Shown here piece by piece: positions 1 through 12,418 of a DNA stretch of 20,000 bases (its first letter is position 1; each line of letters opens with the position of its first letter). The translations under genes were made by a program, and so were the position numbers. The stretch is taken from contig NC_057719.1 of the NCBI RefSeq assembly GCF_004010195.1, forward strand, positions 29,596,415-29,616,414, given 5' to 3'. Under the pieces are notes generated by a model, which worked only from the letters and a program-made list of their open reading frames with translations, made no database searches and was not told where the DNA came from. Source of the stretch: Chiloscyllium plagiosum (Eukaryota).

Positions 1-1
1 A

Positions 2-169
2 TGGCTGAGGAGCTGGTGTAAGGGAAAAGGATTCACATTTTTGGATCATTGGAAGCTCTTTTGGGGTAAAAGTGACTTGTACAAGAAGGACGAATTGCAT
101 CTAAATTGGAAGGGGACTAATATACTGGAAGGGAGATTTGCTAGAGCTGCTCAGAAGGATTTAAACTAG
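2..169 (+). pseudogene. CR1 ORF1 C-terminal remnant (SGNH/GDSL esterase-like domain)
   Basis: Frame 2 reads WLRSWCKGKGFTFLDHWKLFWGKSDLYKKDELHLNWKGTNILEGRFARAAQKDLN*. It has a DxxH motif and is homologous to the 9350-9568 peptide. Confidence 0.85.
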
Positions 170-175
170 TGAGGT

Positions 176-3060
176 GTGACCCAGGGAGGTAGTGAAGAAA
201 GAGATCAATCTGAGACTGGTACAGTTGAGAACAAAGGCAAATCAAATAGTCAGGGCAGGCAGGGACAAAGCAGAGAACAAGGTAGGACTGATAAATTAAA
301 CTGTATTTATTTCAATGCAAGAGGCCTAACAGGGAAGGCAGATGAACTCAGGGCATGGTTTGGAACTTGGGATATCACAGCAATTACAGAAATGGACAGG
401 ACTAGCAGCTTAATGTTCCAGGATAAACATGCTACAGGAAGGACAGAAAGGGAGGCAATAGAGGAGGGTGAGTGGCGGTTTTGATAAGGGATAGCATTAC
501 AGCTGTATGGGGGGAGGATATTCCCAGAAATACATCCAGGGAAGTTATTTGGGTGGAACTGAGAAATAAGAAAGAGGTGATCACTTTATTGGGATTGTAT
601 TATAGACCCACTAATAGTCAGAGGGAAATTGAGAAACAAACTTGTAAGGAGATCTTAGTTATCTGTAAGAATAATAGGGTGGTTATGGTAGGGGATTTTA
701 AAAACATGCACTGGGACTGCCATAGTGTTAAGGGTTTAGATGGAGAGGAATTTGTTAAGAAGACTTGTTACAAGAAAATTTTCTGATTCAGTATGTGGAT
801 GTACCTACTAGAGAAGGTGCAAACCTTGACCTACTCCTGGGAAATAAGGGCAGGGGAGTGCGGTGTCAGTTGGGTGTCAATTCTATTAATTTTAAAATAG
901 TGATGGAAAAGGATAGACCAGATCTAAAAGTTGAAGTTCTAAATTGGAGAAAGGCCAATTGTGATGGTATTAAGCAAGAACTTTCGAAAGCTGATTGGGG
1001 GCAGATGTTCACAGGTAAATGGATGCCTGGAAAATGGGAAGCCTTCAGAAATGAGATAACGAGAATCCAGAGAAAGTATATTCCTGTTTGGGTGAAAGGA
1101 AAGGCTGGAGGTGTATGGAATGCTGGATGACTAGAGAAATTGAGGGTTTGGTTAAGAAAAAGAATGAAGCATATGTCAGGTATAGACAGGACAGATCGAA
1201 TGAATCCTTAGAAGAGTATAAAGGCAGTAGGAGTATACTTAAGAGAGAAATCGGGGGGCAAAAAATGGACATGAGATAGCTTTGGCAAATAGAGTTAAGG
1301 AGAATCCAAAGGGTTTTTACAAGTACATTAAGGACAAAAGGGTAACTAGGGAGAGAATAGGGCATCTCAAAGATCAGCAAGGCAGCCTATGTGTGTAGCT
1401 GGAGGAGATGGGGGAGATACTAAACGAGTATTTTGCATCAGTATTTACTGTGGAAAAGGACATGGAAGATATAGAATGTAGAGAAATAGATGGTGACATC
1501 TTGAAAAATGTCCATATTACAGAAGAGGAAGTGCTGGATGTCTTGAAACATAAATGTTGATAAATACCCAGGACCTGATCAGGTGTACCCTAGAACTCTG
1601 TGGGAAGCTAGAGAACTGATCACTGAACCTCTTACTGAGATATTTGTATCAACGATAGTCACAGGTGAGGTGCCGGACGACTGGAAGTTGGCTAACGTGG
1701 TGCCACTGTTTAAGAAAGATGGTAAGGATAAGCCAGGGAACTATAGACCAGTGAGCCTGACATCAGTGGTGGGCACGTTGTTGGAGGGAATCCTGAAGGA
1801 CAGGATGTACATACATTTGGAAAGGCAAGGTCTGATTAGGGATAGTCAACATGGCTTTGTGTGTGAGAAATCATGTTTCACAAACTTGATTGAGTTTTTT
1901 GAAGAAGTAACAAAGAGGATTGATGAGGACAGAGTGGTAGATGTGATCTATATGGACTTCAGTAAGGCGTTCTACAAGGTTCCCCATGGGAGACTGGTTA
2001 GCAAGGTTAGATCTCATGGAATACAGGGAGAACTAACCATTTGGATACAGAACTGGCTCAAAGGTAGAAGACAGAGGGTGATGATGGAGAGTTGTTTTTC
2101 AGACTGGAGGCCTGTGACCAATGCAGTGCCACAAAGATCGGTGCTGGGCCCACTACTTTTCATCATTTATATAAATGATTTGGATGCGAGCATAAGAGGT
2201 ATAGTTAGTACATTTGCAGATGACACCAAAATTGGAGGTGTAGTGGAAAGTGAAGAAGGCTACCTCAGATTACAACAGGATCTTGATCAGATGGGCCAAT
2301 GGGCTGAGAAATGGCAGATGGAGTTTAATTTAGATAAATGTGAGGTACTGCATTTTGGGAAAGCAAATCTTAGCAGGATGTATACACTTAATTTTAAGGA
2401 TCTAGGCAATATTGCTGAACAAAGAGACCTTGGGGTGTAAGTTCATAGCTCCTTGAAAGTGGAGTTGCAGGTAGACAGGATAGTGAAGAAGGCATTTGGT
2501 ATGCTTTCCTTTATTGGTCAGAGTATTGAGTACAGGAGTTGGGAGGTCATGTTGTGGCTGTACAGGATATTGGTTAGGCCACTGTTGGAATATTGCGTGC
2601 AATTCTGGTCTCCTTCCTAGCAGAAGGATGGTGTGAAAATTGAAAGGGTTCAGAAAAGATTTACAAGGATGTTGCCGGGGTTGGAGGATTGAGCTATAGG
2701 GAGAAGTTGAATAGGCTAGGGCTGTTTTCCTTGGAGTATCGGAGGCTAAGGGGGTTTATAAAAGCATGAGGGGCATGGATAGGATAAATAGACAAAGTCT
2801 TTTCCCTGGGGTGGGGGAGTCTAGAGCTAGAGGGCATAGGTTTATGGTGAGAAGGAAAAGATATAAAAGAGACCTAAGGGGCAACTTTTTCACACAGAGG
2901 ATAGTACGTGTATGGAATGAGTTGCCAGAGGAAGTGTTGGAGGCTGGTACAATTGCAACATTTAAAAGGCATTTGGATAGGTATATGAATAGGATGGGTT
3001 TGGAGGGATATGGGCCGGGTCTGGCAGGTGGGACTAGATTGGGTTGGATTATCTGGTCAG
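176..3060 (+). pseudogene. CR1 ORF2 remnant (APE endonuclease + reverse transcriptase), broken into fragments
   Basis: Track ORFs 176..484, 472..786, 765..1130, 1088..1279, 1583..2440 and 2766..3149 are collinear pieces of one EN-RT protein. End coordinate is approximate. Confidence 0.9.
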
Positions 3061-3758
3061 GATGGACAAGTTGGACCGAAGTGACTGTTTCCATGCTGTA
3101 TATCTCTTTGACTCCAAGAGATAATCATAATGAATTATGTGGTCGTTAGCTGTGAACAAGTCTTAGTTAATACTGCAGATTCCTGGAGGTTACTTGATTG
3201 TCTTTGGAAGCTGAACTGGAATTTTCCAAGTTTGCATTACTGATTGTGTGAAATGGAGACAGAAATACGAGGAAGGTTGTGAAAATGGCTGGGCTTCAAA
3301 GATGATGCTTGCTCCTGGGATCACAGGGGATCAGGGCAATGGTGAGTCTTTCAGGCTGCAATGAATGGAAAATACATGTAGGGCACTATGGGACATTATA
3401 TATCATGAATGAGGTAAATTTATAAAGATAGCACGAGAAATCTCACTGGGCTTCATGGAGAAAAACGCTTCATGAAACTTGCCAAAATTGATAATTAGTC
3501 AATTTCTACTAAATTCAGCTCATAGTCATAAGTAGGAGTGAATTGCTTAGGCTTTAGACTGTGAAGACTTGAGGACCACATCTTGGCTGTGAACAACATA
3601 TTAAATATCTTAGGAAACCATGTAATGTCAAAGGCAAAGATTTGATTTTGTACTTTATCAGTTATTACATCTTAACTGCAGTGTTATGCCTCATCTAAAA
3701 AGTATAGAAATCAATTTATTTTCACTCTCATTTGTTGTTAAGTGTGCATAAGTTACTA

Positions 3759-5538: not shown

Positions 5539-5717
5539 TGAGTGACTGTCAACAGATCTCGTGCTTTTTTGAACAAAATAGAACGTATCTGCAAATGCAA
5601 ATTCACTACATAGAAGTAAATGTGTGTGTGTGTGCGTGTGAGTGACTGTCGACTGATCATGTGCTTTTTTGAAAATAGAATGTATCCGCACATGCAAATT
5701 CACTACATAGAAGTAAA

Positions 5718-5738
<21 letters not shown>
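5539..5738. repeat. Diverged tandem duplication, period ~100 bp, inside the Penelope-like remnant
   Basis: tgagtgactgtc...gtgctttttt...atgcaaattcactacatagaagtaaatgtgtgtg starts at both 5539 and 5639. Confidence 0.9.
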
Positions 5739-6148: not shown

Positions 6149-9100
6149 TTTTTCTTATTCATTCGCAGGACATGGGCATCACTGGTGAGGCCAGCATTTA
6201 ATGTACATCTAAACTGCCCTCGAAAGGATGACATCAATCACTTTCTTGGTAATGACATGGCCTGCTAGATGATTCTGGGTGTATTTAAGAGTCAACTACA
6301 TTATTGTGGATCCGGAGTTACACTTGAACCTCACATGACAAGGACATCAAGAAAGGGACATTAATAAACCAAATAGCTTATTTTACAAGTCTCCACTCCT
6401 GATACTAACATTAGAACATAGAACATAGAACAATACAGCACAGAACAGGCCCTTTGGCCCTCAATGTTGCGTCGACCTGTGAACTATTCTCAGCTCGTCC
6501 CCCTACACTATCCCAAATTCATCCAAGTGCTTATCTAAGGATTGTTTAAATTGTGGAATGCCCTACATTAGCAGGTAGGGCATTCCACGCCCTCACCACT
6601 CTCTGTGTAAAGAACCTGCCTCTGACATCTGTCTTAAATCAATTACCCCTCAATTTGTAGTTATGCCCCCTTGTACACGCTGACGTCATCATCCTAGGAA
6701 AAAGACTTTCACTGTCTACCCGATCTAATCCTCTGACCATCTTGTATGTCTCTATCAAATCCCCTCTTAGCCTTCTTCTTGCAATGAAAACATGTTCAAG
6801 TCTCTCAGCCTTTCCTCATAAGACCTTCCCTCCAGACCAGGCAACATCCTGGTAAATCTCCTCTGCACCTTTTCCAATGCTTCCACATCCTTCCCGAAAT
6901 ATGGGGACCAGAAATTTACACAATATTCCAAGTGTGGGCACACCAGCGTTGCAGCATGATATTGCGGTTCTAGAACTCAATCCCTCTACAATTGAGACCT
7001 AACACACCATATGCCTTCTTAATAGCACTATACACCTGGGTGGCAACTTTCAGGGATTTATGTACATGGACTCCAAAATCCCTCTGCACATCCACACTAC
7101 CAAGTATCTTTCCATCAACCCAGTACTCTGCCTTCCTGTTATTCTTCCCAAAGTGCATCACCTCACATTTAGCTGCATTGAACTCCATTTGCCACCTCTC
7201 AGCCCAATTCTGCAGTTTATCCAAGTCCCCCTGCAACCTGTAACATTTTTCCACACTGTCCACTACTCCACTGACTTTAGTGTCATCTGCAAATTTACTA
7301 ATCCATCCACCTATGCCTGTGTCTAAGTCATTTATAAAAGATGACAAACCGCAGTGGTCCCAAAACAGATCCTTTTGGCACACCACTAGTAACCGGACTC
7401 CAGGCTGAATATTTTCCATCAAACACCACTCACTGCCTTCTTTCAGAAAGCCAGTTTCTAATCCAAACTGCTAAATCACCCTCAATTCCTCTGCATTTTC
7501 TCCAACAACCTACCATGTGGAACCTTATCAAAGGCTTGACTGAAGTCCATGTATACCACGTCAACTGCCCTACCCTCATCTACATGCTTGGTCACCTTCT
7601 CAAAAAACCCAATGAGGTTTGTGAGACAAGACCTGCCCCTGACGAAACCATGTTGACTATCTGAAATCAAATTGTTGCTTGCTAGATGATTATAAATCTT
7701 ATCTCTTATAATCCTTTACAAAATCTTTCCTATAGCAGAAGGAAGGCTCACCAGTCTATAATTACCTGGGTCATCTCTACTGCCCTTCTTGAACAAGGGC
7801 ACAACATTTGCAATCCTCCAGTCCTCTGGTACAAAACCTGCAGACAATGACGACTCAAATATCAAAGCCAAAAGCTCTACTATCTCCTCCCGAGTTTCCC
7901 AGAGAATCCTCTGATAAATCCCATCCGGCCCAGGGGACTTGTCTACTCTCACTCCTTCTAGAATTGATAACATCTGTTCGTAACTAACCTCGATCCTTTC
8001 TAGTCTAATATCTCATCCCTCATTCTGCTCCTCAGCAATATTCTCCTTTTCCTGAGTGAAAACCAATGAGAAATGTTCGTTTAGCACCTCTCCGATCTCC
8101 ACAGGGTCCACACTCAACTTCCCACTTCTGTCTTTGATTGACCCTATTCCTACCCTAATCATCCTTTTATTCCTCACATACCTTTAGAAAGCTTTAGGGC
8201 TCTCCTTTATTCTATTTGCTAAAGACTGCTCGCGTCCTCTCTTTGCTCTTCTTAGCTCTCTCTTTAAATCCTTCCTAGCTGATCTGTAACTCTTCATCAC
8301 CTCATCTGAACCATCTTGCCTCATCAGCACATAAGTCTCCTTCTTCTTCGTAACAAGAGATGCAATTTCTGTAGTAAACCATGGTTCCTCTACCTTATCA
8401 CTTCCTCCCTGCCTGACAAGGACTTACCGAAAAGGACGTGCAATATCTGTTCCTTAAACCAGCTCCACATTTCCATTGTCTGCATCCCCTGCATTTTGCT
8501 ACTCCATTCTATGCATCCTAACTCTTGCCTAATCGCATTATAATTTCCCTTGCCCCATAGATAATTCTTGACCTGTGGCATGTACCTATCCCTTTCCATC
8601 GCTGAACTAAATGTAACTGAATTACAATCATTCTCTCCAACGTGCTCACCTACAACTAAATCAAACACCTGGCCTGGTTCATTACCAAGCACCAGATCCA
8701 GTGTGGCCTCTCCTCTTGTCGGCCCTTCGACATACTGTGTCAGGAAACCCTCCTGTACACATTGGACAAAAACTGATCCATCCGACATACTGGAGTTACA
8801 GCATTTCCAGTCAAGGTTGGGAAGTTGAAGTCTCCCATAATGACCATCCTGTTCCTTTCACTCCTACCCAGAATAATTTTGCTAATCCTCTCTTCCACCT
8901 CCCTGGAACTCTGCGGAGGCCGATAAAAAAACTCCAAGCAGTGTGACCTCTCCTCTCCTGTTTCTAACCTTCAGCCCACACTACCTCAGTAGACGAGTCC
9001 TCATCAAAAGTTCTCTCTGCCACCGTTATACTATCCTTGACTAACAAGGCCACGCCTCCCCCTCTTTTACCACCTCACCAGTTCTTAATGAAAGATCTAA

Positions 9101-9650
9101 ACCCTGGCACCTGCAACATCCATTCCTCACCCTGTTCTATCCATGTCTCCGAAATGGCCACAACATCGAAGTCCCAGGTGCCTATCCATGCTGCAAGCTC
9201 ACCTACCTTATTTTGGATACTTCTGGCGTTGAAGTAAACACACTTCATACCAGCACATTCCTGTGACCTTGAAATCCTGTCCCTGACCTTCCTACTCTCA
9301 TCCTCCTGTGCACTGCAACTACACCCCCAGTTCCCATCCCCCTACTGAGCTAGTTTAAACCTACCCAAATAGCACCAGCAAATTTCCCACCCAGGATATT
9401 AGTATCCCTCTGGTTCAAGTGAAGACCGTCCTGTTTGTACAAGTCCCACCTTCCCCAGAATGAGCCCCAATTATCCAAGAACCTGAAACCCTCCCTCCTG
9501 CACCATCCTTGCAGCCATGTGTTCAGCTGATTTCTCTCCCTATTCCTTGCCTCGCTATCACGTGGCACATTCTATTCTAGATTTAACTAATTAACAGAAG
9601 TTAAATTCCCCAGCTTCTTTAGTGAGGTTTTAAATCCTGTGTCCAAATCA
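6149..9650 (-). mobile_element. Old tRNA-derived SINE (same family as 13059-13398), split by the 6413-9568 LINE; own sequence ~6149-6412 and ~9569-9650
   Basis: Shares ttattcatt, agcatt and ttaagagtcaac with the 13059 copy. It resumes after the LINE with tattctagattt...aaattccccagc, which corresponds to tattccagatg...aaatgttaccatc in the 13059 copy. Confidence 0.65.
6413..9568 (-). mobile_element. CR1-clade LINE of a second subfamily, 5'-truncated within ORF1, decayed; same orientation as LRRC9
   Basis: ORF1 esterase remnant (9568-9350, ..DLYKQDGLHLN..). Endonuclease (KCVYFNARS, VVAISETW, FYRPP, IMGDFNFP, LDLVL). RT (PGNYRLVSL, QHGFVRGRSCLTNL, YMDFSQAFDKV, FADD at 7293-7282). (ATGTTCT)n 3' tail at 6413-6430. 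Possible short TSD acatt (6408-6412 / 9567-9571). Confidence 0.95.
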
Positions 9651-9776
9651 TCATACTATTATTCAATAAGGGAATGAAGGATAAACCAGAAATGTCAGGC
9701 AAGTCAGTGTCCAAATCATCATACTATTATTCAATAAGGGAATGAAGGATAAACCAGAAATGTCAGGCAAGTCAGT
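9639..9776. repeat. Perfect 68-bp tandem duplication
   Basis: gtgtccaaatcatcatactattattcaataagggaatgaaggataaaccagaaatgtcaggcaagtca at 9639-9706 and 9707-9774, plus gt. Confidence 0.97.
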
Positions 9777-10207
9777 ACAACCACAGTGGTGGGGAAACTA
9801 TCAGAAGCAATCCTAAGGAACAGAATTAATGCAAACTTGGAGAGGTAGATATTAAGCAAGTCAGTATGGTTTTGTTAAGGGGAGGTCATTTCTGACCAAC
9901 TTGATTTAAATTTTCAAAGGGGTAACCAGGCTGTAGATGAAGGTAATGCATTTAATGTAATCCATTTAGATGTCTGCAATTCCTTTGATGAGATCGAGCA
10001 AGGGAGAATTATAGTGAAGGTAAGAGCCCATGGGATCCAAGGAAAGTGGTTAATTGGATCCAGAACTGGTGAGTGGCAAGAAGCAGATGGCGGTGGTTGA
10101 GGGGTGTTTTTGTGACTAGAAGCCAGTCTGTAGTGAGGTTCTGCATGAATCAGTATTGAGGCCTTTGCTGTTTGTGGTATATATAAACAACTTAGATTTG
10201 AATGTAG

Positions 10208-10342
10208 GAATATATTTAACAGATATTTGTTGGAACTTCAATTCTGTGACTGTGCACCTTGTAGATGGACTGCAGCAACTCACCAGAGCTCTTTTCATAG
10301 AACCTTCTAAACCCACAACCACTACCTCTCAGAAGGACAAAC
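10208..10342 (+). mobile_element. 135-bp insert containing a fragment of an unrelated (L2-like) LINE, bracketed by a 10-bp direct repeat
   Basis: TTGAATGTAG at 10198-10207 and 10343-10352 is seen directly. gactgcagcaactcacc...ccttctaaacccacaaccactacc...agaaggacaa resembles a shark L2-like LINE from memory. Confidence 0.5.
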
Positions 10343-10349
10343 TTGAATG

Positions 10350-11275
10350 TAGCAAGTTTGCAGATCACCCCAAATTTGGAGGTGTAGTGGACAGCGAAGA
10401 AAGTTACCTCAGATTACAACGGGATCTTGGTTAGATAAGCCGACGGACTGAGGAGTGGCAGATGGAGTTTAACTTAGATAAATGTGAGGTGCTGCACTTT
10501 GGAAAGGCAAATTAGAGCAGGACTGATCCACTTAATGATAAGGTAATGGGGAGTGTTGCTGAACAAGAGACCTTGGAGTGCAGGTTCATAGTTTCTTGAA
10601 AGTGGAGTTGCAGGTAGATGGGATAGTGAAGGTGGTGTTTTGTATGCTTTACTTTATTGGTCAGAACATTGAGTATAGGAGTTCGGAAGTCATGTTGTGG
10701 CTGCACAGGACATTGGTTAGGCCACTTTTGGAGTATTGTGGGCAATTCTGGTCTCCCTCCTATCAGAAGGATATTGTGAAACTTGAAAGGATTCAGAAAA
10801 GATTTACAAGGATGTTGCCAGGGTTGGAGGATTTGAGCTACAGGGAGAGACTGAACAGGCTGGGCCTATTTTCTGTGGAGCTTTGGAGGCTGAGGGGTGA
10901 CCTTATAGAGGTTTGTAAAATCATGAGGGGCATGGAAAGGGTAAATAGACTAGGTCTTTTCCCTGGGGTGAGGGAGTCCAGAACTAGAGGGCATAGGTTT
11001 ACTGTGAGAGGGGAAAGATTTAAAAGGGGCGTAAGGGGCAACCTTTTCATGCAGAGGGTGGTGTGTGCATGGAATGAGCTGCCAGTGGAAGTGGTGGAGG
11101 TTGGTACAATTACAACAATTAAAAGGATGGGTATATGAATAGAAAGTGTTTAGAGGGCTATGGGCCAAGTGCTGGCAAGTGGGACTAGATTGGGTTAGGC
11201 TATCTGGTTGACATGGATGAGTTGAACTGAAGGGTCTGTTCCCATGCTGGACATCTCTAGGACTCTATGATTCTA
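10350..11275 (+). mobile_element. 5'-truncated CR1 of the same family as the 1-3116 copy
   Basis: Closely parallels ~2207-3116 (e.g. ggaggtgtagtgga..gaagaa.g.tacctcagattacaac.ggatcttg). ORF 10578..11138 is the RT C-terminus. Tail is ctctaggactctatgattcta. Confidence 0.93.
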
Positions 11276-12418
11276 AATGTGAGGTGGCGCAAACAAGGAA
11301 GGTAATGCATGATGAACAGTAGGACATTGGGAAGCACAAAGGATCAGAAGAACTTGGTGTGCATATCCATTAATCTCTTAAGATAGCAGCATCAATAGAT
11401 AAAGTGGTTAAGAAGGCACATGGGATATTTGCCTTTATGAGATAGAGCAGAGAGTTTAAGAGCAGAGAAGTTAGCTGGAACTCTATGAAATATTGGTTAG
11501 GCCACAGCTAGAATATTGTGTGCAGTTCTGGCATCCATATCTTAGGAGGGATGGAACTGCATTGATAAGGGTGTAGAAGAGATTTACCAGGATGTTGCCT
11601 TGGCTGCAAGTTTTAGATAGGAGGAGAGACTGTTTACTCTGAAGTTGTTTTCCTTAGAGCAGAAGAGACTGGAGGAGGGTGGGTGGGGGTGCCATGATTG
11701 AGATGTTAAAAAAAAAAGAGTATGAGAGCCATAGGCAGGGTAGACAAGAAGAAACCTCTTTCTTGGTGGCGGGATCAATGACCAAGAGGGATGGATTTAA
11801 GGTAAGGTGAAGGAGGTTTAGAAGGGAATCAAGGAAAATGGTTTTGACTGTTAGAGTGGTGGGAATTTGAAACTCACTGCCTGCAAGGGTGGTAGAAACC
11901 ACCATAGCATTTAATAAGTATTTATATGTATAGGATTAGATAGTTAGGTGATTATTTTTTGACCAGCCTCGATGGGTGATTCGATGGGGGTGAACAGTCT
12001 TTTTCTCTGCTGTAGATCTCTGTGATTTTATTATTGGATTGGGTCAGTGGATGACAATCCATGACTATAACTATCATGCTACTTTTCTCTACCAGTGTGG
12101 GAAGCTGATTTTCCTTATTGATGTATTCACGGTTTATTATATAATTGTCCAGTTAGCTACTGAAATGCAACATCTGTTTGATATTGGAGTTAGAGCATTT
12201 ACAATATTGAATGTTTACTCTTGTAGTTAATAGGATTTAGTAATAATAAACACAGGAACATCAGAAAATTCCCAAATTAATGTTAATATATTTATTCATA
12301 TACTATATAACTAATTGAACTAAAAGATTAGCCATTTTTAAACTTTAAATTTTGAACGGTTGTTTCAGTTAAGGAATAAGACGCACAGATCCCAATTTTC
12401 CTTCTAATTGGTAGTAAA

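Follow-up and report, generated by a model that had tools for sequence, protein, structure and literature searches.

Introduction

LINE ORF2 translation is called an open question in the available excerpts of two reviews (PMC3894237, PMC3708506), and the available parts of PMC13343379 describe CR1-group elements as the dominant retrotransposons of most vertebrates. SART1 and mammalian L1, for which reinitiation (of an unconventional kind in L1) is the tested mechanism according to the sections available to us (PMC3708506, PMC2881922, PMC5009743), resemble CR1 in having a bicistronic RNA; their ORF2 translation depends on ORF1. SART1 uses UAAUG coupling, and a UAAUG is also found in some shark CR1 families. 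However, SART1 and L1 make a separate ORF2 protein, whereas most CR1 junctions seen here have a slippery heptamer and no AUG at the overlap.

A second group of described systems reaches the downstream frame by -1 programmed ribosomal frameshifting (PRF). U_UUA_AAC and G_GGA_AAC are among the most shift-prone heptamers for mammalian ribosomes (excerpts of PMC5009743), and the canonical signal includes a structure 5 to 9 nt downstream (excerpts of PMC3542737). In coronaviral (IBV-type) and retroviral -1 PRF, as described in the consulted parts of these two papers, a structural ORF ends with the same heptamer in the same phase, the polymerase ORF likewise lies in -1, and there is no start codon in common. 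CR1 differs in being a non-LTR LINE with the stop directly after the heptamer, no predicted downstream pseudoknot or hairpin, and a frameshift that we infer from comparison. Among LINEs, a figure legend in PMC5911963 states that TRE5-A and TRE3-A of Dictyostelium require a -1 frameshift for ORF2. Like CR1, these are APE-RT LINEs, but they belong to another clade and have another type of ORF1, and the legend names no shift site.

Our searches of the literature, which took in parts of PMC3905857, PMC11835228 and PMC4255032, found no report of a CR1 slippery site; CR1 papers from 1997 to 2003 may note the overlap. The first 300,000 characters of PMC5009743 name HeT-A, TART and LINE-1 and do not mention CR1, and the available text of PMC13343379 contains no mention of frameshift, overlap or slippery. 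Judged from sequence, what would be new is the major host group in which this known mechanism operates, and the Dictyostelium LINEs offer a precedent.

Results

A slippery heptamer adjoins the ORF1 stop of a decayed CR1 element

The window, the whole 20,000-nt stretch of DNA analyzed here, carries a 5'-truncated, decayed CR1 LINE (copy 1) at 6412..9568 on the minus strand, which we delimited by tblastn with an intact ORF2 relative (P0173) and an ORF1 relative (P0002). The element starts inside ORF1 at 9568 and ends in a (TTCTATG)n tail at 6430-6412. The 3' end of ORF1 (9350..9568, minus strand) encodes the C-terminal 72 aa of an SGNH/GDSL esterase domain with the ending G-L-N-stop; the Pfam model Lipase_GDSL_2 matched this fragment with an E value of 2e-5 and the full-length relative P0002 with 5.6e-15. 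It is followed by an ORF2 remnant (6555..9245, minus strand; tblastn against P0173) with an APE endonuclease and a reverse transcriptase (RT) interrupted by stops and indels. P0173, an intact endonuclease-RT protein with Exo_endo_phos and RVT_1 domains, aligned over most of its length at 56 to 82% identity with 6 frame changes in ORF2, which shows that this genomic copy is dead. The SGNH esterase in ORF1, the APE-then-RT order in ORF2, the short-repeat 3' tail and the 5' truncation are all traits of the CR1 group, and copy 1 appears to be CR1 by the resemblance, read by eye, of its junction to CR1-labelled rows in the PMC13343379 supplement. The ORF1 relatives with names come from Mustelus, Hemitrygon and Hypanus (sharks and rays), and the home of the element is likely a shark or other cartilaginous fish. 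One shark-type CR1 ORF1, P0004, is 83% identical to the window fragment and carries the NCBI label of a Pseudomonas aeruginosa SGNH hydrolase; this bacterial label likely reflects host contamination.

At the end of ORF1 the minus strand reads GGT TTA AAC TAG. The heptamer U_UUA_AAC (9353..9359, minus strand) thus stands in 0-frame X_XXY_YYZ phase directly before the ORF1 stop TAG (9350..9352, minus strand), as a sequence-only reading of this stretch had noticed. Direct reading also bore out its -1 frame, FKLAQ*GDGNWG...MKCVYFNARS, with the endonuclease in -1. Between the stop and the endonuclease lies a purine-rich linker (9246..9349, minus strand) that is open in the -1 frame in the family. 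The stop itself varies: a TAA variant accounts for 4 to 14% of contig depth at this site, and TAG, TAA and TGA all follow the heptamer in published consensus rows. TTTAAAC occurs 6 times in the window, counting both strands, and the two occurrences with TAG after them are the ORF1 ends of two CR1 copies. The chance of an in-phase heptamer arising from an L-N-stop ending is, by a rough estimate, about 0.01 per lineage, or about 0.025 with generous values; the inputs were a 298-codon ORF2 stretch, a third-position T frequency of 0.29, TTA for 2 of 28 Leu codons and AAC for 5 of 12 Asn codons.

The in-frame stop and the ATG of copy 1 are private mutations

Copy 1 has two features that bear on translation in -1, an in-frame TAG and an ATG just before KCVYFNARS. 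We mapped sequence from 4 of 24 listed runs, three of DNA (as contigs) and one of RNA (as reads), to 9150-9570 at 80% likeness. In terms of summed contig depth, which is not a copy count, the first position (9344) of the TAG at 9342..9344 (minus strand) was C, giving CAG, in 38089/38717, 51850/52814 and 166082/169198, or about 98% in all three DNA runs. The same C was found in 9/9 RNA reads, and P0012 and P0174 have Gln at this position, as expected from the CAG>TAG decay that had been suggested for this codon. The ATG (9246..9248, minus strand) had been raised as a caveat to frameshifting. It is present in copy 1, but the family has a Leu codon there: TTG was found at 9248 in 22062/22302, 22584/22817 and 53822/54261 of contig depth (about 99%) and in 4/4 RNA reads, and P0012 and P0171 to P0174 have Leu. 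Because the TAG and the ATG are both private decay mutations of copy 1, both caveats are explained.

Loose ends at 9250, taken with the sequence of P0171, suggest that the copy 1 linker has lost about 5 codons in frame; no indels were listed for the reads and contigs over 9150-9570. The contig comparison of this region showed no heptamer position among 40 listed rows of 114, which hold just 12 of the 72 ORF1 third positions. As for the outcomes set beforehand as counting against the reading, the -1 stop proved not to be fixed, the ATG proved not to be conserved, and no synonymous break of the heptamer was found at the junctions seen.

The heptamer is conserved beyond what L-N-stop coding requires

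We searched the PMC13343379 supplement, which gives about 1,000 vertebrate CR1-group consensus rows with their first 400 letters visible, and judged the matches by eye. Searching for TAAAC followed by TAG or TAA leaves the first two T of the heptamer free. TAAAC+TAG gave 20 places; after 8 non-junctions were dropped and 1 row that begins inside the motif was set aside, both T were present in 11/11. TAAAC+TAA gave 17 places, of which 11 were dropped, and both T were present in 6/6. Both free T were therefore found in all 17 informative junction rows, behind codons for A, G, Y, D, C and others, in a tally from the visible first 400 letters that the remaining parts of the rows could alter. Junctions with heptamer and stop came from sharks, rays, a chimaera, bowfin, halosaur, bullfrog, coelacanth, alligator, crocodile and bearded dragon. 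Parts 9 and 43 of the supplement, each covered in full, held 3 junction rows among 44.

Among the places shown, the AAT, TTG, CTG and non-T variants of the heptamer gave no recognisable junction. In the supplement rows as far as visible, CTTAAACTA had 0 places, and no junction was found in 3 of 3 places seen for ATTAAACTA, 5 of 7 seen for GTTAAACTA, 5 of 5 for TTTGAACTA, 5 of 6 seen for CTGAACTA and 16 of 16 for TTTAAATTA. The sequence-only reading had proposed conservation of the heptamer beyond coding as a test, and the outcome agrees with it: the heptamer is kept in 17/17 junctions with no synonymous variant seen, in lineages that are not fully independent.

Among the best 150 representatives from an ORF1 profile search, the ending is LN in 52 and GN in 9. 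Only 2/52 have Q, K, E, M or W, which have no T-final codon, directly ahead of LN, compared with 15% nearby (P 0.012); the representatives and the consensus rows are related, so P values overstate the case. Each of the 9 GN endings has Q in front, the residue that G_GGA_AAC would require. These Q-G-N proteins (P0067, P0077, P0079, P0083, P0093, P0095, P0110, P0114 and P0136) are distant esterase ORF1s, and their sequences, read from protein alone, are compatible with a G_GGA_AAC heptamer in those families.

We scored tails in 83 representatives, leaving aside 67 with no motif or no tail of 20 to 45 aa. A heptamer-compatible tripeptide ends 49/83, compared with 3.5% of internal tripeptides. The tails after the DxxH motif range from 24 to 39 aa, and because their length varies in this way the ending tracks the stop and not the fold. 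The remaining 34/83 have other endings, some with a compatible tripeptide a few codons earlier, and some of these 34 are probably L2-type. Shortly before their ends, P0119, P0142 and P0167 have K-N, compatible with A_AAA_AAC, and P0091 and P0149 have F-F, compatible with U_UUU_UUY.

The frame of ORF2 in other lineages

We scanned metagenomes with an ORF1 motif that lies about 25 codons upstream, so that the sequence at the ORF1 end played no part in the selection. The 10 loci obtained comprised 1 CR1 (L003), 7 of L2 type and 2 that are apparently bacterial. L003, an unrelated CR1 (46% identity), reads caT TTA AAC TAG at its ORF1 end. Its -1 frame is open for 33 codons into the endonuclease and has two ATT codons ahead of the endonuclease and no ATG before the first endonuclease motif. 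Searches of viral contigs, genome contigs and plasmids for ORF1 relatives with flanking DNA gave none beyond the weak matches L001, L002 and L013.

In the related protein P0174 the reading continues without a stop from FKL to the endonuclease and has no Met ahead of it, and in P0012 and P0019, which are fused by an indel, FKL also runs into the endonuclease. P0078 enters FKL, but the protein ends ahead of any endonuclease. Linker lengths are about 30, 37, 46 and 100 codons, and the -1 phase is kept in all. No -1-frame Met was found upstream, within the overlap back to the last -1 stop (39 nt in copy 1, 15 in copy 2 and 15 in L003). P0171 and P0173 have a linker Met at a position that is Arg in the window and in P0012, P0172 and P0174.

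The window holds a second CR1 copy of another family (copy 2; about 1-3120, plus strand, by tblastn). Its ORF1 ends D-L-N-stop, read as gaT TTA AAC TAG at 160..169 (heptamer 160-166, plus strand). The endonuclease of copy 2 is in the 0 frame, which goes against the -1 reading; copy 2 is heavily decayed, and because it has many frame changes elsewhere, an indel is the likely cause, probably a linker deletion.

We also translated six of the visible consensus rows by eye as far as the endonuclease. ScyCan_CR1-1a and SquAca_CR1-6c, both with TAATG, are open in -1; AmiCal_CR1-1 is in -1 up to the endonuclease without an in-frame ATG; CalMil_CR1-1b has two stops in the -1 frame; and AllMis_CR1-1b and PogVit_CR1-2 are off frame. 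These frames are weak evidence either way, because the rows visibly drop bases inside conserved coding sequence.

A G-rich motif lies at fixed spacing downstream

A G-rich motif, GGGGGATGGGAAC (9330..9342, minus strand), starts 10 nt after the heptamer, encodes G-D-G-N in the -1 frame and is a candidate stimulator. The sequence-only reading had pointed to a longer G-run segment about 10 nt downstream. The GGGGGATGGGAAC part of that segment is shared, but the third G-run (9328-9324) is private to copy 1; the family differs there at 9329, 9328 and 9326. Of 10 matches to GGGGGATGG, 8 are CR1 rows, 7 of these 8 are junctions in the visible sequence, and 6/7 have the 10-nt spacing. These rows, identified by eye, come from shark, ray, chimaera and alligator. 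The window has this spacing too, and L003 has a G-run at the same 10-nt distance. The motif may act as RNA or as a G-D-G peptide. The GGGGGATGGG motif is absent from copy 2.

Minimum free energy folding of the downstream sequence of copy 1, copy 2 and L003 with the quadruplex option (n = 12) gave z scores from -0.96 to +2.15, with no stable structure and no quadruplex. The suggestion of a G-quadruplex, hairpin or pseudoknot as stimulator therefore found no support in 12 folds of three decayed copies. We also considered long-range pairing of the G-rich motif and rejected it: the best partner, in the FWSP-coding region (-17.3 kcal/mol), was equalled by the best of 20 shuffles, and the partner found for copy 1 was not seen in copy 2 or L003. 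Two candidates for a stimulator are the G-rich motif, which is possibly protein bound, and the stop next to the heptamer, through its slow decoding. In PRRSV, a C-rich motif lies about 10 nt downstream of the shift site. The PRRSV nsp2 frameshift, which is stimulated by nsp1beta and PCBP (available sections of PMC5009743), resembles the CR1 junction in having a short low-complexity motif at fixed spacing and no RNA structure, but this is an analogy only, as the CR1 motif is G-rich and has no known binding protein.

Discussion

The junction was confirmed as first observed, and the comparative evidence supports its interpretation as a -1 frameshift joining CR1 ORF1 to ORF2. The features of canonical -1 PRF found here are a heptamer in phase, a -1 ORF open across the site (copy 2 is the exception) and conservation beyond coding. 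We consider frameshifting to an ORF1-ORF2 fusion the best reading and probably the correct one. It draws on the phase, the frame, the linker open in the family, the lack of a shared AUG and a heptamer conserved across vertebrate CR1 lineages. In a small share of ribosomes, the tRNA-Leu on UUA and the tRNA-Asn on AAC would slip in tandem to UUU AAA. Slipped ribosomes would avoid the stop and continue as ...L-N-L... via the linker into the endonuclease and RT. Most ribosomes would instead terminate one codon later, so that ORF1p is plentiful and the fusion scarce. By the standard model, tandem slippage would make the fusion read ...G-L-N-L-A-Q-Q... and not F-K-L.

The main rival is termination-reinitiation, which we think unlikely as a general account and possible especially in the UAAUG families. 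Here ORF2 would be made as a separate protein in the -1 frame from a UAAUG, a linker AUG or a non-AUG codon, and the conserved ending would serve efficient termination or restart. Several observations suit it. TAATG is present at 3/6 TAA junction rows in the visible sequence (ScyCan_CR1-1a, SquAca_CR1-17a and SquAca_CR1-6c), where a slippery site and a SART1-like stop-start are co-located and either route could be used; GTG occupies the same place in CalMil_CR1-1b, ScyCan_CR1-14 and copy 2; and the linker Met of P0171 and P0173 and the ATT codons of L003 offer further starts. Calicivirus-type TURBS reinitiation calls for a conserved UGGGA 40 to 90 nt ahead of the stop. Copy 1 has UGGGA at distances of 96 and 37 nt and L003 at 81 nt; the stretch before the copy 2 stop has none, and the motif often arises from W-D codons. 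The UAAUG overlap is absent from copy 1, and no AUG is found at the overlap in the 11 TAG consensus rows as far as visible, nor ahead of the endonuclease in P0174 and L003. The lack of an AUG does not decide the matter, because L1 ORF2 is made without needing its AUG (PMC5009743, in the part available). What reinitiation leaves unexplained is an exact slippery heptamer built from three wobble positions across lineages, the covariation of LN and QGN, and linkers of variable length that stay open in -1. Frameshifting and reinitiation could also each operate in different families.

The heptamer might instead be a by-product, either of protein constraint on a C-terminal L-N or on an F-K-L or G-D-G peptide, or of another RNA function, for instance in packaging or processing. 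Vertebrate ORF1 alignments show an almost invariant L-N, G-D-G is common to the -1 frames, and no stimulator was found, all of which such an account would accommodate. Yet L-N requires neither TTA nor AAC nor a preceding T, and all of these are kept; LN is missing from the ends of the L2-type esterase ORF1s (7 loci); across the differing tail lengths, the ending goes with the stop and not with the fold; and a constraint on F-K-L would itself need -1 translation, for which there is no upstream start. We regard a by-product as improbable.

If -1 frameshifting is correct, a Gag-Pol-like fusion would build RT into the ORF1p particle at a set ratio, ORF2 annotations would extend upstream, and CR1 would provide a site at which frameshifting may need no structured stimulator. 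A heptamer conserved from sharks to crocodilians offers a precise and cheap test of LINE ORF2 translation. A wider proposal, which we hold tentatively and would not yet favor, is that esterase-type LINEs in general join their two ORFs into one protein through recoding of the viral kind. CR1 elements of sharks through reptiles, together with more distant relatives, would shift to -1 at a stop-adjacent U_UUA_AAC or G_GGA_AAC, with a structure-free G-rich stimulator, possibly protein bound, at a fixed 10-nt spacing; L2-type elements would do so by UGA-C readthrough; and the active enzyme would be a Gag-Pol-like ORF1-EN-RT protein.

Other features of L2-type loci and of the window

In the seven L2-type esterase LINEs (L004 to L010), ORF1 ends in TGA, with TGA-C in 6/7 and TGA-CTG in 2. 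Beyond these stops (for example, L004:2608, L007:1322 and L009:398), the 0 frame stays open for 70 to more than 800 codons. In L004 and L009 no Met occurs until past the first endonuclease motif; in L005 and L007 a Met stands ahead of it. From sequence, these TGA junctions are candidates for stop-codon readthrough, and in-frame readthrough has been proposed for the Group 3 LINEs of Paramecium (excerpts of PMC5405496).

The window contains several other repeats. More CR1 RT and 3' fragments lie at 9759-11123 and 11326-11606 on the plus strand. A tandem pair at 5539-5737, with a 97-bp unit containing CA/TG runs, is 89% alike, and a perfect tandem duplication of a 68-bp unit occupies 9639-9776, about 70 bp from the 5' end of copy 1.
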